Under the pieces are notes generated by a model that saw nothing but the letters and a program-made list of their open reading frames with translations, was not told the origin of the DNA and did no database searches. A program made the translations under genes and the position numbers. From contig JAWBZR010000003.1 in NCBI GenBank assembly GCA_044343545.1, forward strand, positions 10,320 through 74,319: DNA of 64,000 bases, read 5' to 3'. The stretch is from Candidatus Aenigmatarchaeota archaeon. GTDB lineage: Archaea; Aenigmatarchaeota; Aenigmatarchaeia; CG10238-14. Of this stretch, positions 14,534 to 54,612 are shown in pieces. Each line of letters begins with the position of its first letter. Positions within the stretch are counted from its first letter, which is position 1.

Positions 14534-16915
14534 CTATATTGCTGTTACTCGTGTGATTTGACTATATTCATCTTCATCTTTATTTCTATGAATCCTATAA
14601 ATTTCTCCCGTAGCAGCAGCCTCTAAATGAGGATTATGGGTTATTATAAATACTTGACTAACAAATTCTTTTATTCTATCTCTTAAAGCATCGGCCATTT
14701 GTAACACGGATTTTTCATCCAAACTTTCGGTGGGTTCATCAAGTATCAACCAATTAAGATGAGGTACTAACACTATAGAGAATGCTATCCTTAGTGCTAA
14801 GCAAGCCATTCTGCTTTCTCCGCCAGACAAATTTTCTACATCTACCCATTCTCTTTTCTTATTTAACAATTGTAACATATAATTTCCATCTTCGACGGCC
14901 ATCCTTATATCTACATAATCTCCATAAGGATATAATTCTTGCCATATTTCAGACATCTTGTTGTTGACCGATTCGATAAATTCAATCCTTAACTCAGATT
15001 GTGTTTTCTGTAAAGCTTCCTCGAAAGCATTTAAATTTTTAATAGCTTTTTCCAGCTTTAGCATATAATTTTTTTGAGAAATAACTTTTTCAAATTCAAA
15101 TTTTAATTTCTCCAAGAGATTTTTTCTATCATTCAAGCTTTTAACTTTCTCTTCATAAAGAGTTTTTTTCTTTATTAGCATATCTCTTGAGTTTTCATAC
15201 TCTCTTTTCAAATCGTCATAATTTAATTTATTTAGCAAGCTCTCATACTCTATTTTTTTGTTTTCTTCAAAATTTATTTCGCTCATTATTTTTTCGATAT
15301 CCGCTTTCAAGTCTTCAAGTTCTTTCGCTTTTTCAATTAAACTTTGAACTTGCAACATTTTAGCTTTTGCCTGATCTATTTGCTTCTCCAGTCTTTGCAA
15401 ATTATCTTTGCTCGTCGTTAAATTAGAATCTAATTCCAAAAGTATGTTTTCAAAATTTTTTATCTTGCTTTCATTTTCTTCATATTCTTTTAACAACTCT
15501 TCTTTTTTATCTAAATATACCTTCGCTTCTTCCATTTTTTTCGCATCAGACTCTATCTTTTCTATCTCCAACTCTAAATTTTTCTTTTCATTTTTCTTAA
15601 CTTCCAATTCACTTGATATTTTTTGAATTTCTTCTTTTTTATGAATCAATAACTGATGTTTGTTTTCTTTAGATATTAGCGAACCACAAACAGGACATTT
15701 GTTTTCTGTTTTTTCAAGTTGTGAAAATATGTTATCAACATCTTGTTTTTTATATTCTAAAAAAGAAATTTCTGAGTTTAAATCTTCTAACTTTTTTCTT
15801 TTTTCTTTAATAATATCTCTCACATTTTCTCCATAAATGGATAAAAGACTGTTAAAAACATTTATATGTTTCTCTATATTTTTCAATTCTCTCTCAATAT
15901 CAGCATTTCTATTTTTAAGTATTTTGCAATTGTTTTCGTTTTTGATCTTTTCTGAGAAAATTTTTTCATACATACTTTTTTCTTCAACAAATTCTTTTTC
16001 GTATATTTTCAACTCTTCAAAATATGTTTTATTTTTTTCGTTCATTTTTGCTATATCTTCGTTTTCTAACATTTTCATTAATTTCTCTTTCCTTTCAAGT
16101 TTTTCACTCAAAATTTTCTTTAAGCCTTTCAATCTCTCCATCAATCTCTCCAACTCAAATTTTTTTTCTTCAACTTCCTTTAATTTTACCTGTTTTTCTT
16201 CAACAATCAATTTCAATTCTTCTATATTTTTTAAAATGTTGTTAATTTCAATTTCATCAGCACTTATTTTTGCAGACAAATCATCAATTTCTCTTTTTTT
16301 ACCCTCTATATCTTCTTCAGACAGGATTCTTTGCAAACTTGACTTTTCAGCCTCCATTTTTGTTCTCAAATTCACCGTAGCTGATCTTGCTCTCTCAAAA
16401 TCATCTATTCGAAGCAAATTATCTATTTTTTTAGCTCTCTCACTTGGTGAAAGTCTTATGAAATAATCTATATTATTTTGTTCAGAATATATTGCCCTGC
16501 TAAACAATTCATAATCTACTTTTAATATTTTTTCTATAGCTTCAGTGACCCTCCTAGTATTTGGTCCTTCTATCAACTTATATTCTACATTCTCTCTCTT
16601 TCTCAGCTCTGAATATGTCGTGCCTTTATCCCTTTCAATAACTCTATAAACTGAATAGTCTTTACCTTCATAAGAAAATTCTAGTTCAACCCTAGCTTCA
16701 TTTAGCTTTATTGGTTTATTAGTAATCATATCCTCCAAATTTTGCTTTCTCGATTGAACTTTCGGTAAAGTTCCGAATAAAGCAAAAGAAATGGCATCCA
16801 TAATAGAACTTTTACCTGCACCGTTTATGCCAACAATCACATTAGTTCCGTCACTAAACTCAAGAACATTATCTTTATGCATTTTCCAATTAACCAACCT
16901 TATTCTCTTTATCAT
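14534..16915 (-). CDS. rad50: Rad50 DNA double-strand break repair ATPase
   Basis: N-terminal Walker A VGINGAGKSS. Long coiled coil with central CPVCG zinc hook. C-terminal signature LSGGESRMACLALR and Walker B LILDEPTESLD. Confidence 0.9.
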   Translation of the reverse strand: MIKRIRLVNWKMHKDNVLEFSDGTNVIVGINGAGKSSIMDAISFALFGTLPKVQSRKQNLEDMITNKPIKLNEARVELEFSYEGKDYSVYRVIERDKGTTYSELRKRENVEYKLIEGPNTRRVTEAIEKILKVDYELFSRAIYSEQNNIDYFIRLSPSERAKKIDNLLRIDDFERARSATVNLRTKMEAEKSSLQRILSEEDIEGKKREIDDLSAKISADEIEINNILKNIEELKLIVEEKQVKLKEVEEKKFELERLMERLKGLKKILSEKLERKEKLMKMLENEDIAKMNEKNKTYFEELKIYEKEFVEEKSMYEKIFSEKIKNENNCKILKNRNADIERELKNIEKHINVFNSLLSIYGENVRDIIKEKRKKLEDLNSEISFLEYKKQDVDNIFSQLEKTENKCPVCGSLISKENKHQLLIHKKEEIQKISSELEVKKNEKKNLELEIEKIESDAKKMEEAKVYLDKKEELLKEYEENESKIKNFENILLELDSNLTTSKDNLQRLEKQIDQAKAKMLQVQSLIEKAKELEDLKADIEKIMSEINFEENKKIEYESLLNKLNYDDLKREYENSRDMLIKKKTLYEEKVKSLNDRKNLLEKLKFEFEKVISQKNYMLKLEKAIKNLNAFEEALQKTQSELRIEFIESVNNKMSEIWQELYPYGDYVDIRMAVEDGNYMLQLLNKKREWVDVENLSGGESRMACLALRIAFSIVLVPHLNWLILDEPTESLDEKSVLQMADALRDRIKEFVSQVFIITHNPHLEAAATGEIYRIHRNKDEDEYSQITRVTAI

Positions 16916-17535
16916 ATCTTTACACCCAACTTTTTAAGGTCTAACAATAACTGTTTTGGATTCTTATAAACTATGCCATTTATTCCCAACTTGATTGCTG
17001 CCTCTACGTTTTTCTTCTTGTCATCTATGAATATGCATTCTTTCGGTTTTGCATTGATTCTTTCAAGCATCATGATGTAAATTTCTTTATTAGGTTTAGA
17101 TATTCCAACATCGCAAGAATTTATAACTACATCAAAATATTTGTAAAAATCATATTTTTTGTTAATCTCTTCGAGCCATGCATTATTGTTTGTCAAAAGT
17201 CCAAGCTTATAATTTTTTTTAAGATTTTTTATGATGTTTATCACGGGCTCTATAGGCTTGTTTAAGGATATTATTTCTTTTTTTAATTCAGTTTCATCAA
17301 AATCGTAACCCGTTACCTTTTTTATCTTCTTCCAAAACACACTTTCACTTATTTTACCCAAATTAAATTCTTCTACAAGCATCCTTATTTTTTTTCTCTT
17401 TTTAAAATTAAGCAAAAGTGAAAGGATCTTTATCTTTGAAATTTTTGAATTAAACAAAGCTTCTAACAAAAGTTGATTTGTTGTGCCGGGATAAAAACAA
17501 ACACCGCCAAAATCAAATATTATCGCTTTTATCAT
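16912..17535 (-). CDS. HAD-superfamily hydrolase
   Basis: Motif I MIKAIIFDFGGV (DxD nucleophile). Motif III/IV region FIDDKKKNVEAA. Overlaps mre11 (23 nt) and rad50 (4 nt), so it sits inside the mre11-rad50 operon. Confidence 0.7.
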   Translation of the reverse strand: MIKAIIFDFGGVCFYPGTTNQLLLEALFNSKISKIKILSLLLNFKKRKKIRMLVEEFNLGKISESVFWKKIKKVTGYDFDETELKKEIISLNKPIEPVINIIKNLKKNYKLGLLTNNNAWLEEINKKYDFYKYFDVVINSCDVGISKPNKEIYIMMLERINAKPKECIFIDDKKKNVEAAIKLGINGIVYKNPKQLLLDLKKLGVKI

Positions 17536-18730
17536 CCACCAATCCCTCCAAAATAAGTTTCTTAGCTTTCTCTAAATCTCCGCCAGACATGTAACTGTAT
17601 AATTGCAAAAAATCAATTTTATCATCAAAACCTACTTTTCTTATATTTTCTTCCAAAATTTTTATTCCCAATTCTTCAATTGAAATTTTAGATTCTCTCG
17701 CTTCTCTAAGAATTTGAACCTTTTTTTCTAGAAACTCTCCAGTCAACTCTTTAGAATATTTTATTATAAATTCATTAGAATATTCGTCTATTATATTTTT
17801 CATATCCTTATCAACGCTCAAAAGTCTGTTGTATTTAAGTTTTATTTTGAACAGAGGTTTCTTCTGATAGTTTCCTCTATGCTTTTCTATAACTTCCTTT
17901 ATTTGCTCTCCTATACTTCTCTCCTCTTTTATTTCAATTTCTTCATATATGAACTTTCTTTGACCCTTTATAGGTTCAAATTCCACTTTTTCTTCTGGAA
18001 GCAAGAGTTTATAAATGCCCTTTTCAGCCTGCTCCTCTTTTTTAGCTTGCGTGACGATTGTACTACCAGCAAGGATTATTTTCTTATCACCGATTTTTTC
18101 AAACCTCGAAGAATGAATATGACCGTTAATTATGAGATCAAAACCTTCCGGCAAAGAGTCGATTGTGAGAGTGGACGGTTCTGCAGGCGAATATATAAAT
18201 GGCACAATGTTTTGATGAAGCAAGAGTATATTATAGCATCCTTCTTTAGGTTGAGGTGACCATTCTTCTAAAATTTGTGAAGCATATCTTTCTGGCACAC
18301 CAGACATGCCTTGAATTGCCACTTTTATGCCATTTTTTTCGAAAATCAGACCATTCTTGTGTAAGTGATATAGCAATCCTGCTGACTCTAGAAGTTGTAC
18401 AGCATTATATTGTTCCCTTCCGACCCTTTCATGCGTTCCGTGTAGAGCTATGACAGGTATACCTTCGTGTTGTTTGACAACATTCTTTTTAATAGATTCG
18501 AACAATCTTGTCTCGGTTTTAACGGTTGATGGTATTGAAAATATTTGAACGGCCCTTGTTAATATATCTGGCTTTGGAAATCTGTTATCAAATATATCAC
18601 CACACACTATTATTAGGTCGCTATCTAGGCTTTGTTCCATTGCTTGTCTTGCCTGCTCAAAACTATCGTTTTCAAGTGGTGTATTTAGGGCAAAACCCAG
18701 ATGTAAATCAGAAAATATGGAAATTTTCAT
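17513..18730 (-). CDS. mre11: Mre11 nuclease (calcineurin-like phosphoesterase)
   Basis: Phosphoesterase motifs I-IV: ISIFSDLHLG, CGDIFD, GTHE, and GHIH in INGHIHSS. Confidence 0.85.
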   Translation of the reverse strand: MKISIFSDLHLGFALNTPLENDSFEQARQAMEQSLDSDLIIVCGDIFDNRFPKPDILTRAVQIFSIPSTVKTETRLFESIKKNVVKQHEGIPVIALHGTHERVGREQYNAVQLLESAGLLYHLHKNGLIFEKNGIKVAIQGMSGVPERYASQILEEWSPQPKEGCYNILLLHQNIVPFIYSPAEPSTLTIDSLPEGFDLIINGHIHSSRFEKIGDKKIILAGSTIVTQAKKEEQAEKGIYKLLLPEEKVEFEPIKGQRKFIYEEIEIKEERSIGEQIKEVIEKHRGNYQKKPLFKIKLKYNRLLSVDKDMKNIIDEYSNEFIIKYSKELTGEFLEKKVQILREARESKISIEELGIKILEENIRKVGFDDKIDFLQLYSYMSGGDLEKAKKLILEGLVDDKSDNI

Positions 18731-18805
18731 GATTAATTTGTATCAAAATAAAAAGATTAATTTTTGCACTTATTGCTTTTAAAAACAAAAAACCATATAT
18801 TGTTT

Positions 18806-19720
18806 ATGTTAAAAGATTTCTTAAGTATAAATGACATAAAAAGGGAAGAAATTTTGGATTTGTTCAAATTAACAGACAAGGTGAAAAAACATCCATACTC
18901 TGACGTGCTGAAAAATAAAATTTTTTGCTTATATTTTGAAAAACCTTCAATCAAAACAAAAATATCTTTTGAATCTGGAATAAAACAGTTGGGTGGCGAA
19001 GTTGTTTTTATCGAGAAAAATCAAATGCTGAAAGAATTACTTGAAGATTTAATAAGAACTTTGGAAAGATATGTTCATGTAATAGTTGCAAAGGATTTTT
19101 CTCAAAAAGATTTGGAATTAATGTCCAAGATGTCAAAAATAAACATTATTAATGCCTCATCTGACTTGGAAGACCCCTGTCAAGCTTTAGCAGATATTTA
19201 TACAATAAGAGAAAAATTCGGTACATTTAAAGATATAAAATTAGCTTTTTTAGGTAATGGATGTGATAATGTCTTACATTCGCTTCTCTTAGCTGCGACA
19301 AAACTTGGTATACATGTAAATATAGCTTGTCCTGAAGGATTTGAACCTAATAAGGAAGTGTTAGAAAGAGCACAAACTCAAGCAAAAATAAGTGGAAGTA
19401 AGGTTTCGGTGGTGAGAGATCCTCAAAAAGCTGTGAAAGATGCTCACGTAATTTATACTAGTAACCAAGAAGGAAAAACTACAAAAAAACTCTTACCGAA
19501 ATATCGCATTACACAAAAACTTTTGGATAAAGTTGGAAGTGCTCTTTTCATGCACTCTTTACCTGCTTATAGAGGGGAAGAAGTTGATGAAAAAGTTATA
19601 GATGATATTAGGTCGATAGTTTTTGAGCAAGCAGAAAATAGATTGCATGTACAAAAAGCATTGATTCTTAAGATATTGGGTTTGGATAAAATTTATAATT
19701 TAAAATTTTTGATGGATTGA
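18806..19720 (+). CDS. aspartate/ornithine carbamoyltransferase-family protein with substituted catalytic motifs
   Basis: ATCase/OTCase fold landmarks are present (DPCQALADIYTIREKFG; LAFLGNGCDNVLHSLLLAATKLG; HSLPAYRGEEV). However STRTR is SIKTK, HPxQ is DPCQ, HCLP is HSLP and SMG is SNQ. Start moved to internal ATG at 18806. Confidence 0.55.
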   Translation: MLKDFLSINDIKREEILDLFKLTDKVKKHPYSDVLKNKIFCLYFEKPSIKTKISFESGIKQLGGEVVFIEKNQMLKELLEDLIRTLERYVHVIVAKDFSQKDLELMSKMSKINIINASSDLEDPCQALADIYTIREKFGTFKDIKLAFLGNGCDNVLHSLLLAATKLGIHVNIACPEGFEPNKEVLERAQTQAKISGSKVSVVRDPQKAVKDAHVIYTSNQEGKTTKKLLPKYRITQKLLDKVGSALFMHSLPAYRGEEVDEKVIDDIRSIVFEQAENRLHVQKALILKILGLDKIYNLKFLMD

Positions 19721-20725
19721 AATTGGTGTAGCTAGAGTTTCTTCATCCACGTAAAGTTTTTCATCCATCACAACCTCGCCTTCTACTATTGGCTTGGGTT
19801 CTTTCACAGCCTCTATTCTCAAAAAACTTGAACAGTACCAATCTTTTCCACTCTCAAACTGGATATGTTTAAATAAAGGTGTAATTTCTATTGGATACAT
19901 TTCATCTGAGGGATAAATGCTAAACCTTCTCTTTATGTCTGTGATGACGAAACCCATTTCCAGGAGCATTTTTTCAACCTCATACCACTTTTTTCTTGAT
20001 GCTTCAAGAGTTGTCAAGCCAAAATAACCAGAGGCTCCTATACCATTTAAAGCTGAGACTCCACGAGACAAGAAAAGTTTCAATCCTTCCAATGCTTCTA
20101 CAGGGTCTGTAATAAAAACATCAAATTTTCTTTTAAATTCTTTAGGTAATTCTTTTTGAACGTCATAAACAAAAGCTTCCAAATTTAGAGATAGTTTTTT
20201 TGAAACCTGGTTTATAAAATCTATAATTCTTTTATCAACATCTACAACGACTATTTTTTGAGGCAAACCTGTTAATGAAAGAGCTATACTGAGCAGATCA
20301 TCATCGCCTATTATAAATATATTTCCGTGAATATCACCTCTTTGGCTAATAAACTCTACTCTCCTTATCACATCCTCAACTCTCATAGGGTCTTGATCAT
20401 ACTCTTCTTTTCCATTTGGTCTACCTTTTACTATCTTTTTAAATTTTTGAAAAATTTTCTTATAAACACCTCTAATAGCTATTCCGCTTACACAATTCTT
20501 ACAATCTACACTTGTTTTCAAAAAATTTTTTGCAATTTCTCTACCTTTTTTTGTCAAAGAAACCGTGTTTCTATTTATGTCTACAATCCCTTTAGTTTTC
20601 ATCTCTTCCATTTTTTCGATAAATTCTTTTATGGAAGCATCCTGCTTACTTAGAATTGAAAAATAATCAGTTTCTCCCAATAAGATATTCTGTATTATTT
20701 GTGCTTCTATTCTATCCATTATCAT
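19700..20725 (-). CDS. bpsA: BpsA-like aminopropyltransferase (DUF43; branched-chain polyamine synthase family)
   Basis: N-terminal wHTH-like region plus a Rossmann-like catalytic domain with the characteristic GDDDLLS motif (NIFIIGDDDLLSIALS). Adjacent to speH. Confidence 0.55.
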   Translation of the reverse strand: MIMDRIEAQIIQNILLGETDYFSILSKQDASIKEFIEKMEEMKTKGIVDINRNTVSLTKKGREIAKNFLKTSVDCKNCVSGIAIRGVYKKIFQKFKKIVKGRPNGKEEYDQDPMRVEDVIRRVEFISQRGDIHGNIFIIGDDDLLSIALSLTGLPQKIVVVDVDKRIIDFINQVSKKLSLNLEAFVYDVQKELPKEFKRKFDVFITDPVEALEGLKLFLSRGVSALNGIGASGYFGLTTLEASRKKWYEVEKMLLEMGFVITDIKRRFSIYPSDEMYPIEITPLFKHIQFESGKDWYCSSFLRIEAVKEPKPIVEGEVVMDEKLYVDEETLATPISIHQKF

Positions 20726-21066
20726 CCCCTGTCAAGTATATAATGTCGATAAGATTTTGGTTTGAATTTTTTCAAAAACAATTTAAATGCCCTCTCTGCC
20801 TTTTTTTCATCTCCACAGGTGAAAATATCTACATTTACTAATTCATACTCAGGCCATGTATGAATAGATATATGGCTTTCTGCTATTAAAACAATCCCTG
20901 TAACACCTTGTTTGTCAAATTGTTTGAAAATTGCACCGACCTTATTTAATTTTGCAGAATTAACAACATCTTCGATAATCTTTCTAACTTGGGCTTCCTT
21001 GGAAATGATCCCCGGATCCACTCCATAGAGCTCTGCAATTATATGCTTTCCTACTATCATCTTCAT
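20722..21066 (-). CDS. speH: S-adenosylmethionine decarboxylase proenzyme (pyruvoyl-dependent, archaeal SpeH type)
   Basis: MKMIVGKHIIAELYGV..; processing/active-site region IAESHISIHTWPE. The track ORF starts 6 codons upstream on GTG; ATG at 21066 is preferred. Confidence 0.8.
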   Translation of the reverse strand: MKMIVGKHIIAELYGVDPGIISKEAQVRKIIEDVVNSAKLNKVGAIFKQFDKQGVTGIVLIAESHISIHTWPEYELVNVDIFTCGDEKKAERAFKLFLKKFKPKSYRHYILDRG

Positions 21067-21199
21067 CTTGCATCTAAAAATCACTTTAATTTTATCATGA
21101 AAAATTTTAATAAAAATTTTAATTACATATTTTTAAAATTATCTTTTTCAAAATATTAGTTAGACAATATAAAGTATTAAATTTTTATATTGAAAAAGG

Positions 21200-22246
21200 G
21201 TGAGCCTCATAAGGCTTTTGATTGTGGGTTTTGATCCTGGCGAAAAGGCTGGGTTAGCTTTAATAGATACGTTTGGAAGATTGATTCTCTTGACAAGTAA
21301 AAGTTCTGCAAGCCTATCTCATTTTTCTCAGATAATATTAAAATATGGTAAACCGATAATAGTGGCTACGGATAGAAAACCAACACCTAAATCAGTTGAA
21401 AAGCTGGCAAAATCCTTGGGTGCAAAAATCTACACGCCTTCGGAAACATTAACTGTAAAAGAAAAAAATGATATGGTAAAAAGATATGAAATAAACGTAA
21501 AAAATGATCATGAAAGAGATGCTGTTACCGCTGCATTAAAAGCTTACAAGCATTATGTGTCATTGTTTAAAAAAGTAAATATATCTCTTCATTCGTTGGG
21601 ATTGAATAATATATATAGCAATGTAGTCGAAAGTCTCGTGTTCGGCAAAGCAGAAAATTTGGATGAAGCAATTAATAAGGCTTTAAGTTTTAATAAGGAA
21701 GAAGTTAAAGTCGTAAAGCATTCTAGCAAAACCGAAAAGAAGGTTGATGTGGGCAGACTTGAAAAAGATTTGGAAATTTTGAGAAAGTATAATGAAAGGT
21801 TGAAAGAAGAAATAAAAAGGTTGAAAATGAAACCTAAGATAAAAGTTGTTATTCCAAAAAAAGAATTAGATGAAATGAATAAAACTTTGGAATTTATAAA
21901 GGCTTTGAGAAGACTAGAATTGCAAGGTTTCATACCAATAATAGAAGTAAATTTCGAAAATGCAGAAGATATTGATAAGAAAATAGATTTGATGGGTAGG
22001 GTTGTACATTGCGAGGAAAATAACTTGGAGTTTCTCAATAAATATCAAGTAAAAGCCTTGATAAGTTTCAAAGAAATTTCTATAGGAAAGTTGGACTATC
22101 CTGTCATTGTTTTAGATGAAAAAGAACTGAAAGAAAAGGATGGAATAAAGTATATAGAGAAAGAAATTTTGGAAGAAAAATTAAAAGAAGCGAGGAAAAA
22201 AGGGCTGATTGAATGGATAAAAGATTACAAAAAGAGAAGAATTTAA
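21200..22246 (+). CDS. RNase H-fold (RuvC/YqgF-like, DUF460/COG2433-like) protein with C-terminal coiled coil
   Basis: GTG start. N-terminal LLIVGFDPGEKAGLALID (YqgF/RuvC-like first Asp), then IIVATDR and NDHERDAVTAA acidic motifs. C-terminal half is Lys/Glu-rich coiled coil. Confidence 0.45.
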   Translation: MSLIRLLIVGFDPGEKAGLALIDTFGRLILLTSKSSASLSHFSQIILKYGKPIIVATDRKPTPKSVEKLAKSLGAKIYTPSETLTVKEKNDMVKRYEINVKNDHERDAVTAALKAYKHYVSLFKKVNISLHSLGLNNIYSNVVESLVFGKAENLDEAINKALSFNKEEVKVVKHSSKTEKKVDVGRLEKDLEILRKYNERLKEEIKRLKMKPKIKVVIPKKELDEMNKTLEFIKALRRLELQGFIPIIEVNFENAEDIDKKIDLMGRVVHCEENNLEFLNKYQVKALISFKEISIGKLDYPVIVLDEKELKEKDGIKYIEKEILEEKLKEARKKGLIEWIKDYKKRRI

Positions 22247-22731
22247 AGAACGTTTTATGGTTTTTTTTAAAGTTGAATCTTTTCTTAATACCGTTTTATC
22301 TTGTTATATATTTTGATGTAAAATATGAACCCCTACAAATTTTGTTCGCAAGTGCAATAAAAAAGTTCTTGAGTGTTTTTGGTTTTGAAATATTACAAGA
22401 CAGTTTTATTCTCTATCTTGGCCCTGAGAGGTATGCTGTAGACATATCTTTCGATTGTATAGGATGGAAATCTGCTTACTCACTCTTCGCCTTGGTAATT
22501 TCTTCGCCGGGTTTGTGGAAAGAGAAATTTGCCTTTTTATCTAAATGGTTGCCGTTAACATTTTTAATAAATTTTCTTAGAGTCATATTTGCATTGATCG
22601 TTGGTTTTGTCTTTGGGTTTAGAATAATGGCTCCCTTACATGATTACGTACTTCAACCCTTTATGATTGTGTTGGTTTTGTCTTTGTGGATGCTCTATAT
22701 GAATAGGAGAAGATTTATAGAGAAGAAATGA
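22213..22731 (+). CDS. minimal exosortase/archaeosortase-family membrane protein
   Basis: 172 aa, ~5 TM. Conserved-looking Cys motif SFDCIGWKSAYSLFAL (exosortase CxGxRS-like), N..R motif INFLRVIF and His APLHDY in the order seen in the EpsH/ArtA family. Overlaps both neighbours, so it is in an operon. Confidence 0.45.
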   Translation: MDKRLQKEKNLKNVLWFFLKLNLFLIPFYLVIYFDVKYEPLQILFASAIKKFLSVFGFEILQDSFILYLGPERYAVDISFDCIGWKSAYSLFALVISSPGLWKEKFAFLSKWLPLTFLINFLRVIFALIVGFVFGFRIMAPLHDYVLQPFMIVLVLSLWMLYMNRRRFIEKK

Positions 22732-38033: not shown

Positions 38034-38429
38034 TCAGATATTTTTGTTTACAAATTTTTTTGCTTCTTTTATAAAATACTCTGCCTCCTTGATCAAAAGC
38101 TCTACTTCATCCTTCTCTATTACAACATTTAGATAATAGTCAGCACTTTCTCTTAATTCAAAAGATTTTCTTAATATTTTACCCATTTTTTTATCTGCTT
38201 TTTTTTCTTTAACTATTTTTGAGCCAAACTCGGAAATTAACCCTGCGTGTGTTTTGGCATCATATCCGATTGCATTGAGCATAGCTTTGGCAGCATAAAA
38301 CAAAGAGTAATATATTCTATTTGCAGCATCCTCTATTAAATCTTTGCTTAAGAGCAATTTCGCAGCTGACAGCCTTTTTTCTGCCTTCTCAATTTCTCCT
38401 TTTATTATATCTTTTGTAATTTCATTCAT
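38034..38429 (-). CDS. HEPN-domain protein (toxin component of HEPN/MNT pair)
   Basis: All-helical, 131 aa; AKAMLNAIGYDAKTHAGLISEFG and LRESADYY resemble PF05168 HEPN. Overlaps the upstream MNT gene by 8 nt. Confidence 0.55.
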   Translation of the reverse strand: MNEITKDIIKGEIEKAEKRLSAAKLLLSKDLIEDAANRIYYSLFYAAKAMLNAIGYDAKTHAGLISEFGSKIVKEKKADKKMGKILRKSFELRESADYYLNVVIEKDEVELLIKEAEYFIKEAKKFVNKNI

Positions 38430-38721
38430 TGTAAATCACCCTGCCTTTGATTATTTCAAGCACAAAAGGATCTTTTTTATTTATCTTTTTGTAAAAATCA
38501 TCTTTGGTAAAAAATTTTAGAGAAACAACTTTACCATACTTGAATAATATCTTATCAGCAATTTTTTCAGCCTTTTGCTTAATTTTTTTATTATTAGAAA
38601 TTATTGCTAAATCTATATCCGAATCAAGCCTATAGTTGCCCCTGGCAACAGAACCGAACAATATTATAGTTGCCTTTAATCCTTCAAACTCTTTTATTAT
38701 GTTTTTATGATATTTTAGCAT
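38422..38721 (-). CDS. minimal nucleotidyltransferase (MNT antitoxin component)
   Basis: ILFGSVARGNYRLDSDIDLAII is the GSxxxG..DxD Pol-beta-type NTase motif. Confidence 0.7.
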   Translation of the reverse strand: MLKYHKNIIKEFEGLKATIILFGSVARGNYRLDSDIDLAIISNNKKIKQKAEKIADKILFKYGKVVSLKFFTKDDFYKKINKKDPFVLEIIKGRVIYNE

Positions 38722-47816: not shown

Positions 47817-48395
47817 TTAATCATCCAAATTAAATGTTTTTAGAAATCTTTTCTTCACAAATTTTGGATATTTTTTTATGTATTCTTTCATTCTTTTCTT
47901 GTCAATTTTTAGTTTAGAAATTATTTTCTTATCAAGTGGTTGCTTGAAATAAATTAAATCTATTAGTGTTTTTTCTTTGTCTGAAACTGGAATAAGAAAA
48001 TTGTCGTAGTTGATTAGCTCGTATCCGAAAAAATATTTTTTGTTTATTCTTCTCACTATGACATTTGTGCCAAAAACCTCTCTCTTCCCACTTCTTATTT
48101 TTTTAGGTGTTACTATTATTGTGTTTGTTTCTTGCTCCCAAAGATTATGTATGCTTAAAGCAGCTTGCAAACCTATATAAGATGGTCTTATGGCAAACAC
48201 AATTAATGTAGGATCATCGTATAAAGTGTAAAATCCTTTTTCAATTCTTTTGATTTTGTCTTTTTTCAACAAATAATTTAACAAGACATTTGCATAATTT
48301 TCGTTTCTTGTCAAGAGTATTATATCTCTAGTACTCACCACAGGATTTTTCTTGAATAAATCCATTATTCGTGACAAATATTTTATTTTGCCCAT
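47817..48395 (-). CDS. AbiEi-like (COG5340) antitoxin/transcriptional regulator
   Basis: N-terminal wHTH-like KYLSRIMDLFKKNPVVSTRDIILLT plus a C-terminal domain. Overlaps the upstream AbiEii-like gene by 13 nt. Confidence 0.45.
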   Translation of the reverse strand: MGKIKYLSRIMDLFKKNPVVSTRDIILLTRNENYANVLLNYLLKKDKIKRIEKGFYTLYDDPTLIVFAIRPSYIGLQAALSIHNLWEQETNTIIVTPKKIRSGKREVFGTNVIVRRINKKYFFGYELINYDNFLIPVSDKEKTLIDLIYFKQPLDKKIISKLKIDKKRMKEYIKKYPKFVKKRFLKTFNLDD

Positions 48396-49039
48396 ATTTC
48401 TATCGCCTTTATTAAATCTTCCAGCTTTGGAACGGCACCTGAAATTATCAAAGTAGGTAAATTCTTTTCGTCTAACGGTGGTTTGAAATTTTTTAAAAGG
48501 TTGTTTATCAATTTTGAAATTTCTTTTTTTTCTTTTACGTAATTTAGCAAAAAGTATATATCGTAAAGATCTCTTACTTTTTGTCTTTTTTCATATGCCT
48601 TTATTTTTTCCTTAATTATTTCTTCTGGAGTTAAAGTGTAAACAATAATAAATGTTCCGTCAGATAATTCAAACTCTTTTGAAACATAGTTTTTTATGTT
48701 TTCAAAAACAACTTCGAATCTAATTATTGCATTGTTGTAGGCAAATGCTGAATATATGGAATTTTCTGTTTCTTTGAATTTTTGCGTTTGGAAGCCAATC
48801 TTTTCTAGATTTTCCCTGAATTTTTTTAATTGAGTTGAATTTTTTAGTTTTTTCGGTAAATATACATCTATATCTTCTGAAAATCTATTGCCAGAATAAC
48901 ACCTCCATATTGCTGTGCCGCCGTGTATGATAGGAGTAGTTAATGTTTTGTACATCTCAATTACCAATAAATCTTGGGCTAAAGCTATGTCTTTATGATG
49001 CTTTTTTTTGAGTTTTTTTTCTATTGGAAGTATGACCAT
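48383..49039 (-). CDS. AbiEii/DUF1814-family nucleotidyltransferase (type IV TA toxin)
   Basis: IHGGTAIWRCYSGNRFSEDIDVYLP matches the GGTAL...R.SEDIDF signature of AbiEii. Confidence 0.6.
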   Translation of the reverse strand: MVILPIEKKLKKKHHKDIALAQDLLVIEMYKTLTTPIIHGGTAIWRCYSGNRFSEDIDVYLPKKLKNSTQLKKFRENLEKIGFQTQKFKETENSIYSAFAYNNAIIRFEVVFENIKNYVSKEFELSDGTFIIVYTLTPEEIIKEKIKAYEKRQKVRDLYDIYFLLNYVKEKKEISKLINNLLKNFKPPLDEKNLPTLIISGAVPKLEDLIKAIEIWAK

Positions 49040-49463
49040 AAATATAAATTAACCATACTTATATATAAATATAATTTTGGTTGATTTAATCTAAAATTTT
49101 ATAAAATAATTTTAGAGTTTTTGGACTCCAAAACCTTAAATTAAAATACAGTTAAATTTTAATCATACCAAAATTAAATTGTTTTATTAGATTTTAATTT
49201 TTTGAATGTTTTTACATTTCATTTTTTTGGCTTGTAAGTGTATTTCTGCTTTTTTATTTTAACTTTTACTTGGTAGAATTTGTCGTTGAAGAAACATATT
49301 AAAAAATTTTATAATTTTTTAAGAATTTCCAACATTCCTTTATATCTTTTTATTATTCTAGAAATTTCCTTATCTATTTCATTTAAAGGCACTTTCATCG
49401 TATCTATTCTATCATCAGGATATATTATTTATAATGGTACCTCTATTACAGATTCTAACTATT

Positions 49464-50606
49464 TTATAATGCTTTCTGTTTTTTATAAAATTCATGTTTT
49501 TTATATGAAATAAATTTTTTAAAATTATGAATGCCGTCATCATTACTTGTAATATTTTTAGATTTAAAAAATTTCATAGTTTTTCTTAATTTTGTTAACT
49601 CAAATAATTTAATAAATCCACCTTTTTTAAGAGATTGGTACCAAATTTTAACTTTAAAATTTGTATCATAAAACATCCAAAATTGTAATAAAAAATTATA
49701 TATTATATAATCAAATATCCACATCAACTTATCTTTTATTAATAAATTTTTATTACAAAAAATTTTTTTTGCTATATAAATATTCGATAAAAAACTGATA
49801 ATAAAAGTGAAAAATATCATACCAAGTTTTTTATCAAGTTTTGAACAAAATTTGAAAAAAATCCTAAACATTTTTACATGTTTTTCAGAAAAATATAAAG
49901 GATTACCATCTATTTTATATACTTTATTGCCATAATTTAAAATTAATAGTAATTTGTAACCAAACTGATAAGAATCTATAAATGTTTGATTAATTACATT
50001 TTTTAATCTTTTTTTAAGATAATAATTTGAATTATGAAATATAATAACTTTATTTAAGTGCTGCGGTTTTTCTTTAGTAAAGTAATGCCAATGTATTATA
50101 CCTATTGGAGTTACATAATTTTTATTGAAAAATCTTATTAATATAGATTGAAATCTTTTTGACGGATAATCTTCTTTTCTTACTATTGTAAATACATTAG
50201 ATTTAAATGATTTATTTTTGCTTAAATTGTATAAACTTTTATCATTTATATTTTCATCATCTTCTATAATAAATATCCATCTATATTTACATAAAGAAAA
50301 TCCTATATAATAAAAAAATACAGACGTCCCTAAAGGAGGAAAATTAAATATTCTTATTTTATTTTCTTTTTCTAAATGTTTTTTTATTTCATAATAAAAT
50401 TCTAATTTGCTATTATCTAAAATTATTATTTCATCAAAATATTTTTTTAATTTTTTAGCTAATTTTATTACATTTTCCGGTTTATTCATCGAAATAATAA
50501 TTGCAGATACTTTATTCATAAAGATACCTCGATATACTTTCATTATATAAACTTTTAACTTCATCTGATGACAAACTTTTATTATAAATTCTAATTTCAC
50601 CGACAA
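49464..50606 (-). CDS. glycosyltransferase family 2-like protein (start uncertain)
   Basis: VSAIIISMNKPENV..FDEIIILDNS resembles the GT2 N-terminal Rossmann segment. Extremely AT-rich. Likely true start at internal MNKVSAII. Confidence 0.4.
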   Translation of the reverse strand: MSVKLEFIIKVCHQMKLKVYIMKVYRGIFMNKVSAIIISMNKPENVIKLAKKLKKYFDEIIILDNSKLEFYYEIKKHLEKENKIRIFNFPPLGTSVFFYYIGFSLCKYRWIFIIEDDENINDKSLYNLSKNKSFKSNVFTIVRKEDYPSKRFQSILIRFFNKNYVTPIGIIHWHYFTKEKPQHLNKVIIFHNSNYYLKKRLKNVINQTFIDSYQFGYKLLLILNYGNKVYKIDGNPLYFSEKHVKMFRIFFKFCSKLDKKLGMIFFTFIISFLSNIYIAKKIFCNKNLLIKDKLMWIFDYIIYNFLLQFWMFYDTNFKVKIWYQSLKKGGFIKLFELTKLRKTMKFFKSKNITSNDDGIHNFKKFISYKKHEFYKKQKAL

Positions 50607-52878
50607 TTATTTTTCCAAAATAACCAACCGGCTCTTTTGCAATAGTAATAGGATCTTTAAGATTTATTACATCATAAAAATACATATATTCATTATTTAA
50701 TTCACCATCAACATAAATTTTTAAAAATGTTTTATTTTTAGAAATAGTAAACATATGCCAAGAATTTTCAATTCTAGAAGGTGAAGTATTAAAATCAAAA
50801 ATATGCCAAACATAACTTGAATTTTGCAAATGAAAACTTATTCTAGTATAATTATTATTAATTTGTAAACTCCATTCTCTATCTTTTCTTATTATGTTTT
50901 GAATTTTGTTATGTGTTGTACCATTGAGTTTTAGCCAAATAGATATTGTAAATGTTTCACCTGTTTCTAAAGAATCAGAATGTGGAATATATATATATGA
51001 ATTATTGCCGTTTAAATATAAAATGCAACTATTAAGTTTTGTTTTTAACCACACGCCATTATTTATTTTTCCATTATTTCCATAACCCGAATAATCATAA
51101 ATCATATCACCGGAACATTCGTCTATTTTCCAAAAACCTAATAAGTTGTCATGATTTTCAGTATATAGATTTACTTTGTATATAGTAATATTTTCTAATT
51201 TTAAAACCGGTGTGAAATATTTAAAAGATGTATTAATATATGTTTTTATTGTGTCATAATAAAATTGATTAACCAAAATATAATTATTTTCAAATATTAT
51301 AAAGCTAATATTGTTTTTTTCAAAAATTTCTCTTGGAAAATTTTGATTATTAAGATTTTCAAGAATTTTATGATATACATCCGATTTTGGAATATTAATT
51401 TTAGTATCATATAAATTGGAAATATAAAGAGGAATGTTGCTCATAAATGATTGTCGCCAATCAACAATACCATAAACTGGAATCCAAATATAATTTTGAT
51501 TTGGATTTTGCTTTATAAATTCAAAAACACTATCATAATATTGTGGTATACTCACTGGATTTAAAAGCTTAGAATATATTTTTGTTTGAACATAGAAATA
51601 GTAACAAACTGGCGGTAATATAATTACTAATGATAAAATGAGTATAAAAATAGGATATTTTTTTGTATAATAAATTAATAATATGGAAACTAAAATAAAA
51701 CCAAAAGAAAAAACTATATTTAAATTAGCAAGAGCATTTATAAATGGGGAAAAGATAATATTAGGTAAGATTTTAGAAATATTTAATAATATTTTAGAAA
51801 TAAAATTAGAATTATGAAACCCGTTCATAAAAAACATAAAAATAATTATCGTCAAAAAAATACCTAAAGAAATTTCATACAACCAATTATTGTTTTTATT
51901 TAAAAAAATAATAGTTGACCAAAATACAAATGCAAATGGAAGGTAAACTAAAAAATTTGAAGGAAAAACAATTTGTTCTTTGTATATTATACTATATTTT
52001 GTATTTATTTCTTCTTCTTTAAATGAGAATGTTAATATGTTGATAAAAGGCTGGCCCCAATAATCAATTTTAGATTTTGTAAATTTTATCATTTCTTGAG
52101 TTGGATTAATATAAGTAAAGTATATAATATCAAAAAAAATATAACAACTAGATATAATAATTGGGAGGAAGAACAATAAAAAATATTTAAAATTTTTTTT
52201 GTAAATAACTATATTTAAATAGAGAAAAAATACGAAAGTATATGCCAGAATAAAAAATGGTGGATTTGCTACCAAAAAAAATCCCACAAAGCCAAGTAAA
52301 ATATTTTCGAAAATCAATTTTTTTATGTCAAAATTATTAATAAGTTTAAAATAAATATTGATCATAAGAGAAAAAAATATCGGCGCAAAAATATACGGTA
52401 TTTGAAATTGAGGCAAAAAATAATTCTTAATAAGACCTGCATTTGTATATATATTAAAAGCGTAAAACAAAGAAAGTAGATATATTATTATATTAACAAA
52501 ATTAGATTTATTTTTTGAAAATATCAAATTACTTATTTTATTTAAAGACAATATGGAAGAGCAAAAAGATAAATAATGATAAATTATAATTGATAGTTTC
52601 CATGATAAAATTTTATTTCTTAAAAAAAGAAATATTATTTCAACAATAATATAAGATGGGAAGAACCAAAAACCAAAAGGTGATTTAGACATTCTTAAAA
52701 ATTCAGAAAAAGAGATAGCTGCCGATCCATTATCTACAAAACCGCTATATCCTTCTTTTAATAAGTATCTACATATTAATAAAGAAAATAAAATTGGAAT
52801 GAAAAAATAAAACAATAATGTTTTTAAAATTTTTTTAAAATTTAACTTTTTACAATTTGTTTCCATTGGAATTGTCAC
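50512..52878 (-). CDS. large polytopic membrane protein with C-terminal LamG/concanavalin-A-like jelly-roll domain
   Basis: ~14 TM helices, then WKIDECSGDMIYDYSGYGNNGKINNGVWL..FTISIWLKL..GEIRIYNKSLSSDEVKSLY (Laminin_G_3-type pattern). Overlaps neighbouring GT genes. Confidence 0.5.
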   Translation of the reverse strand: MTIPMETNCKKLNFKKILKTLLFYFFIPILFSLLICRYLLKEGYSGFVDNGSAAISFSEFLRMSKSPFGFWFFPSYIIVEIIFLFLRNKILSWKLSIIIYHYLSFCSSILSLNKISNLIFSKNKSNFVNIIIYLLSLFYAFNIYTNAGLIKNYFLPQFQIPYIFAPIFFSLMINIYFKLINNFDIKKLIFENILLGFVGFFLVANPPFFILAYTFVFFLYLNIVIYKKNFKYFLLFFLPIIISSCYIFFDIIYFTYINPTQEMIKFTKSKIDYWGQPFINILTFSFKEEEINTKYSIIYKEQIVFPSNFLVYLPFAFVFWSTIIFLNKNNNWLYEISLGIFLTIIIFMFFMNGFHNSNFISKILLNISKILPNIIFSPFINALANLNIVFSFGFILVSILLIYYTKKYPIFILILSLVIILPPVCYYFYVQTKIYSKLLNPVSIPQYYDSVFEFIKQNPNQNYIWIPVYGIVDWRQSFMSNIPLYISNLYDTKINIPKSDVYHKILENLNNQNFPREIFEKNNISFIIFENNYILVNQFYYDTIKTYINTSFKYFTPVLKLENITIYKVNLYTENHDNLLGFWKIDECSGDMIYDYSGYGNNGKINNGVWLKTKLNSCILYLNGNNSYIYIPHSDSLETGETFTISIWLKLNGTTHNKIQNIIRKDREWSLQINNNYTRISFHLQNSSYVWHIFDFNTSPSRIENSWHMFTISKNKTFLKIYVDGELNNEYMYFYDVINLKDPITIAKEPVGYFGKIIVGEIRIYNKSLSSDEVKSLYNESISRYLYE

Positions 52879-53794
52879 CTTTTTTAATTTTTAAAAGTAA
52901 ATTAAATGCATCTATAGTTCCAGAAAAATATGCTTTTATTAATATCAACTTTTTTTTTAAACTAAAATCAGATTTAAGTAAAATATTTATAATATAGAAT
53001 AACAAAATTATCCAATTAAAAATTGAAACAAAAATAATAAATTCGTATAAATTCGAATATTTAAAATGAAAAATTATTCTGTTTCTAGCAGTAAAATATG
53101 TTCTACTATATGTTTCAAAACCTGTAAATTTTGTTCTTTTAGCATTATGCCAAATTTTAGCGTCTGTATTACAAAAAATTCTAAATTTTGATTGTTTAAC
53201 TCTTTGACAAAAATCTGCTTCATCATAATGGATAGGGAATTCTTTATGATTTAATAATCCAACTTTATAAAAAACTTTCCTTCTTACCATAAAAGCATTT
53301 GGAAAATCGTCAGATGGTATTAATTTTTTTATTTTACCATTATCTATTTTATCTTTGTAGATAAAAAGTGTTGAAGATGTTACCATATTTCTTCTTATAC
53401 CAGCACACCAAATTCTTTTTGGATCAGAAAGATAATACATAGTTGGCCCTAATACTCCTATCATATTATCTTTTTCCATTGTTTTAACAAGTTCAAAAAT
53501 ACAATTCTTATCTATTACATTATCATCATCTATTAAAAAAACATAATCACCTACTGAATTTTTAATACCAATATTTCTAGAATTTGCCAAAAGAAGATTT
53601 TTTTTATTTCTAATAATTTTTACAGATGGATACTTTTTTCTTATTAAATCATATGTTCCATCAGTAGAGGCATCATCTATGACAATTATTTCTAATTTAT
53701 TTTTAGGATAATTACTATTTAATATTGATTCAATTAATGATAGTAGTTCGTTCTTACGGTTATAAGTCGGGATTACTACGGACACTTTTTTCAT
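52850..53794 (-). CDS. glycosyltransferase family 2
   Basis: VSVVIPTYNRKNEL; VIDDASTDGT; DxD FLIDDDN; C-terminal TM helices. Confidence 0.75.
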   Translation of the reverse strand: MKKVSVVIPTYNRKNELLSLIESILNSNYPKNKLEIIVIDDASTDGTYDLIRKKYPSVKIIRNKKNLLLANSRNIGIKNSVGDYVFLIDDDNVIDKNCIFELVKTMEKDNMIGVLGPTMYYLSDPKRIWCAGIRRNMVTSSTLFIYKDKIDNGKIKKLIPSDDFPNAFMVRRKVFYKVGLLNHKEFPIHYDEADFCQRVKQSKFRIFCNTDAKIWHNAKRTKFTGFETYSRTYFTARNRIIFHFKYSNLYEFIIFVSIFNWIILLFYIINILLKSDFSLKKKLILIKAYFSGTIDAFNLLLKIKKGDNSNGNKL

Positions 53795-54612
53795 AATTTC
53801 ACCTTACTCGCTAAAGAACCAAAGACAACGGAAAAATATTCCATTAACTTAAAAAAAATTAAACTACTAGCTAATATAGGCTTTGAATAAAATTTTTTAT
53901 TTTTTAAAAATATCGAAAATCTATAAAAAATACTTGTCTGCTTTTTTGCATAATCACCAAATTTATTTTTATAAACCGACAATGTTTTTCCATAATAGAA
54001 TTTCTTTTTCATCCACTTCAAAAAAGAAAAATTATATTCATTATGAATTATTTCACTGGAAATTCTGTAATTCACTTTATATCCTAACTTTTCTATTTTC
54101 TGTGGCAAAGTGTTTTCTTCAAAAAAAACAACACTTTCATCAAAACCATTGACTTTAATAACTAAATCTTTAGGAAAGAACCTTGCAGATTCTATAGGAG
54201 TATTAGCATAAAAACTTCTTTCAAAATCTCTTACTCTAACCCAGTATGATCTGCCTATAGATCTTTCTGGAATTATTATACCACCTATTTTTTCTTTTGA
54301 ACATAAATCAACACAATCTTTAATTACATTTTTTGTTAATTCCATATCAGAATCTATAAAAAGCAAATATTCACCTTTTGCTTTTTTAGCCCCAAAATTC
54401 TTCTGCTCACTCCTTTCAGATGCTTTGATCTGAAAAACTTTTCTAGTATATTTTCTAGCAATCTCCACAGTTCTATCCTTTGAAAACTTGTCTACAACGA
54501 TTATCTCAATATTCTTGTAGCTTTGATTCTTAACAGACTCTAAACATCTTTCTAAAGTCTTTTCAGAGTTAAAAGTTGGTATAATAACCGAAACTAGAGA
54601 ATCATTAAACAT
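53791..54612 (-). CDS. glycosyltransferase family 2
   Basis: VSVIIPTFNSEKTLERCL; IIVVDKFSKDRT; FIDSDM (DxD). Confidence 0.75.
   Translation of the reverse strand: MFNDSLVSVIIPTFNSEKTLERCLESVKNQSYKNIEIIVVDKFSKDRTVEIARKYTRKVFQIKASERSEQKNFGAKKAKGEYLLFIDSDMELTKNVIKDCVDLCSKEKIGGIIIPERSIGRSYWVRVRDFERSFYANTPIESARFFPKDLVIKVNGFDESVVFFEENTLPQKIEKLGYKVNYRISSEIIHNEYNFSFLKWMKKKFYYGKTLSVYKNKFGDYAKKQTSIFYRFSIFLKNKKFYSKPILASSLIFFKLMEYFSVVFGSLASKVKL

Follow-up and report, generated by a model that had tools for sequence, protein, structure and literature searches.

We examined an ornithine carbamoyltransferase (OTC)-like gene in a stretch of 64,000 nucleotides, hereafter called the window, from Candidatus Aenigmatarchaeota archaeon (GCA_044343545.1, contig JAWBZR010000003.1, positions 10,320 to 74,319 of the forward strand), where it lies beside the polyamine genes bpsA and speH. 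The gene is annotated by NCBI as ornithine carbamoyltransferase. On balance, its product is probably a pseudoenzyme: a catalytically dead OTC ortholog that has been retained in folded form. The gene is this lineage's ortholog of the Aenigmatarchaeota OTC, and carbamoyltransferase chemistry would have been lost after the split from the nearest sampled relative, Aenigmatarchaeota SKYB117 (locus L007). On the window's own branch, four active-site Arg residues became Lys, the His of HPxQ became Asp, the OTC-specific Cys became Ser, and an in-frame deletion took out the whole ornithine loop. Changes in the remainder were mostly conservative, and the protein seems to have stayed intact and normally folded. 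Such a protein would be unable to make or cleave citrulline. Selection presumably continues to act on its fold, and probably on trimer formation as well, and its Lys-lined pocket may still bind an anion. Its role would then be non-catalytic, as a structural or regulatory partner or as a ligand binder.

The initial annotation had reported that all four catalytic motifs are substituted, with SIKTK for STRTR, DPCQ for HPxQ, HSLP for HCLP, and SNQ for SMG. We placed the motifs using HMMER alignments to the solved OTCs of B. anthracis (4nf2) and P. furiosus (1a1s), together with MAFFT alignments with 24 and 120 homologs. The alignments set SIKTK on STRTR, DPCQ on HPCQ, and HSLP on HCLP; the canonical residues were not shifted elsewhere, and these three assignments stand. 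The SxRT motif was broken in only two of the 120 closest homologs, namely the window protein and P0017, and the window protein was the only one of the 120 with a residue other than His at the first position of HPxQ; the substitutions thus go beyond chance. The loss of both Arg residues of STRTR, as claimed earlier, was borne out in part. Positions 2 and 5 of this motif differ among homologs that look normal (57 of the 120 have SLRTR, and STRTK and SNRTY also occur), and only the Arg of SxRT is essentially invariant. R50K is therefore the one meaningful change, and the residue at position 5 lies within the natural range of the family. In all known transcarbamylases, carbamoyl phosphate is bound by SxRT through its phosphate and by HPxQ through its carbamoyl group (PMC4581275).

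The first reading of the other two motifs needs correction. HSLP still fits the superfamily consensus HxLP (PMC4581275), and the loss of its Cys is by itself mild: C303A lowers OTC activity 25-fold, and C303S was unimpaired in yeast (PMC11256359). The DxxxSMG motif is not replaced by SNQ and is absent through an in-frame deletion of eight codons. The codon alignment gave a single 24-nt gap exactly over DVFVSMGQ, and the protein alignments shifted the eight missing residues slightly, so that the exact placement of the gap depends on the alignment. The Asp of this motif is D231 in E. coli and D263 in human OTC; D263A had no detectable activity, and D263N was reduced 1.4e5-fold (PMC11256359). Human R141, which corresponds to the window position now occupied by K96, is a carbamoyl-phosphate-binding arginine (PMC11256359).

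Further changes in the protein, which the initial annotation had overlooked, were R96K, R76K, T82L, V97D, L118S, D151N, and H255Y. In E. coli numbering, R57, R106, H133, D231, S235, M236, and C273 are left without an equivalent at once. Among the carbamoyl-phosphate arginines, R57 and R106 are replaced by K50 and K96, respectively, and R319 is retained as R279. The substitutions R57G in E. coli OTC and R54A and R105A in ATCase lower activity by three to four orders of magnitude. The alignments and the mutational literature together indicate that residues required for catalysis have been lost, and pseudoenzyme, as already suggested in the initial annotation, is the label that fits best. The same annotation had argued against canonical OTC, ATC, or PTC activity. 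We agree that such activity is very unlikely, because the Arg of SxRT, the R106 equivalent, the His of HPxQ, and the DxxxSMG loop are gone.

A weak but working OTC, or an enzyme using a close substrate such as putrescine with Lys standing in for Arg in phosphate binding, is highly improbable. The ligand-contact residues K46, S48, T51, Q126, N155, L252, and R279 are kept, C303S is tolerated in human OTC (PMC11256359), and the homolog P0281, in which SIKTK has arisen independently with every other motif intact, suggests that R-to-K in SxRT may be tolerated in this clade. Against this stand the deletion of the whole DxxxSMG loop with its essential Asp, the replacement of the HPxQ His by an acidic residue, and the loss of three phosphate-site arginines together. 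The protein also scored only 203 bits against the PTCase model TIGR04384, the cut-off of which is 500, and it fell far under the cut-offs of the AOTCase and YgeW models.

The scaffold of the protein, on the other hand, looks intact in the predicted structure. Both transcarbamylase domains, PF02729 and PF00185, were matched at full length. An AlphaFold2 model built with a homolog alignment as input had a mean pLDDT of 91.5 and a pTM of 0.90, and its confidence dipped in three places only: the remodelled 80's loop (block mean pLDDT of 71), what remains of the deleted loop, and the loop that carries HSLP. OTC structures matched this model in Foldseek with a TM-score of about 0.9 and a root-mean-square deviation of 1.5–2.2 Å. 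These results uphold the earlier description of a full-length protein with the ATCase/OTCase fold. The score against the OTC equivalog model TIGR00658 was 277.5 bits, a marginal miss of the cut-off of 280.85, and that against NF001986 was 289.4, compared with a cut-off of 306.

We compared the protein with the known members of the superfamily. It shares with OTC (EC 2.1.3.3; ArgF/ArcB; TIGR00658; 1a1s, 4nf2) the same two-domain fold, has 39–41% identity to the solved OTCs, and keeps FxKxS, HxLP, and the equivalents of T58, Q136, N167, and R319. Unlike OTC, it has no SxRT Arg, R106, HPxQ His, C273, or DxxxSMG, and its 80's loop is shorter. PTCase, AOTCase, SOTCase, and YgeW/oxamate TCase belong to the same superfamily and have 80's and 240's loops unlike those of OTC; these loops select the second substrate. 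All of these specialised transcarbamylases keep SxRT and HPxQ (PMC4581275), whereas the window protein keeps neither and scores far under those of their models that were tested.

The closest other sequences, P0002–P0008 (n = 7, 316 aa, 66–73% identity), had all the canonical motifs, and the matching genes in four Aenigmatarchaeota metagenome-assembled genomes (MAGs; L007–L010) also bore every one of them. The canonical OTCs of the sister MAGs were 72–73% identical to the window protein. In a neighbour-joining tree, the window protein was sister to P0002/L007, and its gene has the downstream bpsA neighbour in common with that of L007, as expected for descent within the OTC clade. No second sequence with the substitution set of the window protein was found in a collection of 5.8 billion proteins. 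Because its closest relatives are all canonical, the protein is a lineage-specific derivative of an ordinary OTC and does not belong to an ancient family of divergent paralogs.

The protein has diverged faster than its relatives. Its identity to the outgroup P0009–P0011 was 60–62%, compared with 72–76% for its sisters, and its nonsynonymous divergence (dN) from the clade was 0.17–0.23, compared with 0.05–0.11 within the clade. YN00 failed for nearly all pairs, and only a rough three-point comparison of dN was usable, which gave 0.133 for the window branch and 0.033 for the L007 branch. Pairwise NG86 estimates of synonymous divergence (dS) were saturated, ranging from 1.4 to above 3 or undefined, with about 1.8 per pair. 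The acceleration of the OTC branch may be gene-specific or genome-wide, bpsA of L007 being the only gene that the window shares with the fetched loci of the relatives.

Several features of the changes speak for selection still acting on the fold. In columns where at least 23 of the 24 other sequences agree, the window protein had 13 private changes, and its close relatives had 0–2. Conservation across 119 homologs was at least 95% at 62 positions; on the inferred window branch, 11 of these had changed, nearly all of them catalytic. Changes were found at 8 of 15 ligand-contact positions and at 2 of 46 highly conserved non-contact positions (Fisher p = 8e-5). Uniform neutral decay would not be expected to spare structural positions in this way. 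The 61 differences from the sister consensus were mostly conservative outside the cleft (D/E, I/V/L/M), and the radical changes were concentrated in five cleft-lining segments. All three indels were in frame (2, 1, and 8 codons in the codon alignment). Of ten ancestral Arg residues, each of the four in the active-site cleft became Lys, and the six outside it were unchanged; this pattern is weak evidence of selection, since at 30% GC a step from AGA to AAA is also the likeliest mutation.

A rather unlikely alternative, though the strongest competitor of a maintained pseudoenzyme, is that the citrulline/ornithine pathway was abandoned and that the gene is a decaying remnant, so far spared by stop codons, frameshifts, and deletions. 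The approximately fourfold elevation of dN over the sister branch shows relaxed constraint, the allele is a singleton in the protein collection mentioned above, the upstream synteny is broken, no pathway partner lies in the window, and the key changes are mostly single GC-to-AT steps, as mutation pressure predicts at this base composition. Uniform neutral decay should, however, strike structural positions as often as catalytic ones, which is at odds with the 2/46 and 8/15 observed. The conservative nature of the replacements elsewhere, the in-frame indels, and the modelling confidence, equal to that of a normal OTC, also speak against a relic, as does the persistence of inactive OTC copies in related lineages. 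When neutral evolution of the L007 gene was simulated, the probability of acquiring no stop codon over 30–40 excess replacements was 0.05–0.10.

Several points weigh against a maintained pseudoenzyme. Besides the raised dN, the substitution set occurs in a single sequence, so that selection after inactivation is not directly measurable, and the branch-average omega of roughly 0.1–0.15 rests on saturated dS and pools the periods before and after inactivation. The ligand-contact set was drawn from the literature by the analyst, and the counts compared are small. The intactness of the open reading frame is partly an ascertainment effect, an intact frame having been picked beforehand. The ancestral upstream neighbourhood of beta-CASP and RTC genes is gone, so that expression is unproven, and no partner transcarbamylase, carbamate kinase, or arginine gene was found in the window. 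Dating of the inactivation by catalytic codons with multiple hits was considered and rejected; most second hits were synonymous changes at third positions, for which the ancestral state is uncertain.

An assembly or sequencing artefact was ruled out by the many coordinated in-frame changes and by the occurrence of the same protein in independent assemblies. The identical protein is recorded in the Candidatus Aenigmatarchaeota MAG GCA_044343435.1 and in the Logan assembly of SRR21619491. The window and the Logan contig differed by five single-nucleotide polymorphisms in 16 kb, one of which was synonymous in the OTC-like gene, numbers that carry no statistical power.

The initial annotation had placed the gene in a polyamine locus and proposed a role in branched-polyamine metabolism. 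The adjacency of speH and a bpsA-like aminopropyltransferase gene was confirmed by profile matches to both products. The bpsA product has the BpsA_C domain (PF01861) with the GDDDLLS motif and is named in the source record 'bis-aminopropyl spermidine synthase family protein'. The speH product passed the equivalog cut-off of TIGR03330, and its translation holds 'AESHISIHTWPE' with the E-S self-cleavage site; it may start at the GTG at 21084 (120 aa) or, as in the NCBI gene call, at the ATG at 21060 (112 aa). The OTC-like gene is not transcribed divergently from these genes, as had been stated. It is convergent with bpsA, the 3′ ends sharing 21 bp (19700–19720), and the two genes are therefore not co-transcribed. 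In L007, the stop codons of OTC and bpsA are 1 bp apart and the genes do not overlap, unlike those in the window.

The order of genes in L007 is beta-CASP, RTC, and OTC, followed by a convergent bpsA. The bpsA of L007 (a partial gene) is 72.6% identical to that of the window, and its OTC is fully canonical. Because L007 has a canonical OTC in the same convergent position, the adjacency of OTC and bpsA is older than the degeneration of OTC and independent of it. A role in branched-polyamine metabolism deduced from this adjacency is not supported. The OTC orthologs in L003–L006 and L008–L014 likewise lie after beta-CASP and RTC, and neither bpsA nor speH was found near them in the fetched flanks (up to 8–10 kb, less at contig ends). 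Five of the degenerate OTCs described below (P0017, P0263, P0277, P0299, and P0302) also had no polyamine genes nearby. The expected co-localisation of equally substituted orthologs with bpsA and speH was thus not seen: no other sequence in the protein collection carries the same substitutions, and the orthologs of those eleven loci lie elsewhere, an outcome that the initial annotation had itself named as refuting its proposal. As a side observation, the ancestral beta-CASP and RTC genes upstream of the OTC-like gene have been replaced in the window by mre11, a HAD hydrolase gene, and rad50, which marks a rearrangement breakpoint there. No second OTC, carbamate kinase, RTC, or beta-CASP gene was found in the 64-kb window by tblastn or in the Pfam tables of called genes.

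The next-best complete bpsA homologs were 52–56% identical, and those named in their source were mainly from Archaeoglobaceae. The distribution suggests that bpsA, with or without speH, came to lie beside OTC in an ancestor shared by L007 and the window lineage, and that the branched-polyamine genes were laterally acquired in this sub-lineage of Aenigmatarchaeota, which would also fit a hot habitat. The adjacency thus looks like inherited synteny shared with a relative that has a normal OTC, and not like a polyamine operon.

For these reasons, we consider it improbable that the protein is a neofunctionalised enzyme or ligand-binding subunit of branched-polyamine metabolism, working with BpsA and SpeH and binding another acyl-phosphate or an amine in its Lys-lined pocket. 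The gene does adjoin bpsA-speH, all four changed Arg residues became Lys with retention of the positive charge, and the loss of the SMG loop has opened the second-substrate site. However, convergent genes that overlap at their 3′ ends have no common transcript, the same adjacency occurs with a fully canonical OTC in L007, and the other orthologs, dead ones included, are away from polyamine genes. In addition, the new residues are conserved in no other sequence, AGA to AAA is the most likely mutational path as well, and the nearest complete bpsA homologs, at 56% identity and from Archaeoglobaceae, suggest a lineage-specific arrival of that gene.

A wider search for degenerate OTCs lends some support to a pseudoenzyme. 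The search was seeded with P0017, a degenerate sequence from the first alignment, and 231 close homologs were aligned. At least 2 of 14 contact residues were replaced in 12 of the 231, the window protein being one; the eleven others, with 2–9 of the 14 lost, were P0017, P0254, P0260, P0263, P0277, P0281, P0296, P0299, P0300, P0302, and P0305. They fell in at least four places of a crude neighbour-joining tree. Apart from the window protein, P0017 was sister to the canonical P0241, and two clusters were formed by P0277, P0254, P0260, and P0263 and by P0296, P0299, P0300, P0302, and P0305, respectively. Because P0300, P0302, and P0305 share the derived inactivating states S55L, T56P, R57W, and R106G and yet have only 66–72% identity among themselves, the dead state has persisted through speciation in this clade.

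All four loci examined from the two clusters (L090, L091, L092, and L093/L094) had the dead OTC 25–33 nt downstream of a divergent transcarbamylase, to which it was 33–42% identical. The upstream partner had intact STRTR and HPCQ, with DTWI[ND]ME for DxxxSMG and GI[AG]-NNV for GDG. In L091, the gene directly upstream encodes a carbamate kinase (TIGR00746, 380 bits; cut-off, 358), and a class-III aminotransferase gene lies downstream, which suggests a normal role of the family in carbamoyl-phosphate-linked catabolism. The dead OTC of this locus, P0277 (L091:4241-5167), has SIRSK, RPCQ, NAFFSFG, and HPFP, but it scored 333 bits against TIGR00658, over the cut-off of 280.85; the score of the curated model evidently cannot separate dead from live OTCs.

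By analogy with known enzyme pairs, the dead copies may act as partners of the active transcarbamylase; for the window gene, which has no such neighbour, this idea would be an extension by inference only. The assembly of Pseudomonas ATCase requires the inactive dihydroorotase PyrC', and trypanosomatid AdoMetDC has a dead 'prozyme'. PyrC' is also mentioned in PMC4581275. Like these proteins, the window protein has an intact enzyme fold and has lost catalytic residues, and the related dead OTCs stand close behind an intact transcarbamylase. Unlike them, it has no adjacent partner gene in the window, and it derives from a single-copy ortholog and from no obvious paralog. We tentatively put forward, as a possibility less likely than not, that Aenigmatarchaeota have repeatedly turned OTC into a retained non-catalytic protein, in at least four independent cases including the window gene. 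Elsewhere, it would serve as a prozyme-like heteromeric or regulatory partner for carbamoyl-phosphate-linked ATP generation, and the window protein would keep such a non-catalytic role, in which it might act with a partner encoded elsewhere in the genome or as an anion or amine sensor.

The features of the locus and of the related modules are listed in the table. The gene divergent from the OTC-like gene is mre11 (17513–18730, minus strand), followed by the HAD hydrolase gene and rad50. A TTTAAAAA box about 26 nt before the ATG of the OTC-like gene could be a candidate archaeal TATA box of a leaderless mRNA, for which a match in AT-rich DNA is weak evidence.

Table. Features of the OTC-like gene and its neighbours, with positions in the window, and loci of related modules
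Feature	Position	Strand	Evidence
Intergenic spacer of the divergent mre11 and OTC-like genes, 75 bp	18731..18805	.	sequence read directly
OTC-like gene, 304 aa from ATG	18806..19720	+	PF02729 (OTCace_N) 3.4e-37, PF00185 (OTCace) 3e-44
S48-I49-K50-T51-K52 for STRTR; phosphate-binding SxRT Arg to Lys (AGA to AAA)	18947..18961	+	protein and codon alignments
Remodelled 80's loop, IEKNQMLKE vs LDKxTSQLSRGE in relatives; three residues lost in frame, R76K	19010..19036	+	alignments
K96-D97 for R-V; R96 is the equivalent of E. coli OTC R106 and human R141, carbamoyl-phosphate-binding	19091..19096	+	alignments
D123-P-C-Q126 for HPCQ; carbamoyl-binding His to Asp	19172..19183	+	alignments
G150-N151-G152 for invariant GDG (D151N)	19253..19261	+	alignments
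T218/S219 junction of the in-frame deletion removing the ornithine-binding DxxxSMG loop	19457..19462	+	codon and protein alignments
H250-S-L-P-A-Y255 for HCLPAH; superfamily HxLP kept, OTC-specific Cys lost	19553..19570	+	alignments
bpsA-type bis-aminopropyl spermidine synthase gene, 341 aa	19700..20725	-	PF01861 8.7e-85, 284 bits; GDDDLLS in translation
speH, pyruvoyl-type S-adenosylmethionine decarboxylase gene	20722..21084	-	PF02675 6.4e-36; TIGR03330 132 bits vs cut-off 75.65
Transcarbamylase and degenerate OTC module	L090:7052-8930, L091:2281-5167, L092:266-2131, L093:136-2026		Aenigmatarchaeota contigs

Several other features of the window were recorded. Between mre11 and rad50 (14534–18730), the HAD-family hydrolase gene (16912–17535) is an overlapping one, and neither herA nor nurA was identified beside mre11/rad50 in the Pfam tables of called genes. 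Directly beside speH (21200–22731), a gene for a DUF460 protein overlaps the gene that follows it, which encodes an exosortase/archaeosortase-family (EpsH) membrane protein. A nucleotidyltransferase/HEPN pair resembling a toxin-antitoxin system is present at 38034–38721, and similar pairs flank the OTC gene in L004. The region 48000–54600 has a GC content of 0.21–0.24, compared with about 0.32 elsewhere, and encodes several family-2 glycosyltransferases, a Laminin_G_3/Toxin_R_bind_N protein, and an AbiEii-like protein; judging from this content, it looks like a variable surface-glycan island.

The main value of these results lies in the repeated occurrence of dead OTCs in this group of archaea and in the risk of annotation error. 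With the annotation 'ornithine carbamoyltransferase', metabolic reconstructions would credit these small-genome DPANN archaea with a step of citrulline/arginine metabolism of which the protein is almost certainly incapable. Literature searches on dead or pseudo-OTCs and on OTC in Aenigmarchaeota gave no relevant result. As far as these searches go, the dead OTCs would, if maintained by selection, be the first known pseudoenzyme branch in the OTC family. Their recurrence and, in relatives, their tandem pairing with an intact transcarbamylase suggest that they are so maintained. If this is true, they would provide a tractable case of the conversion of an enzyme into a non-enzyme in reduced genomes.

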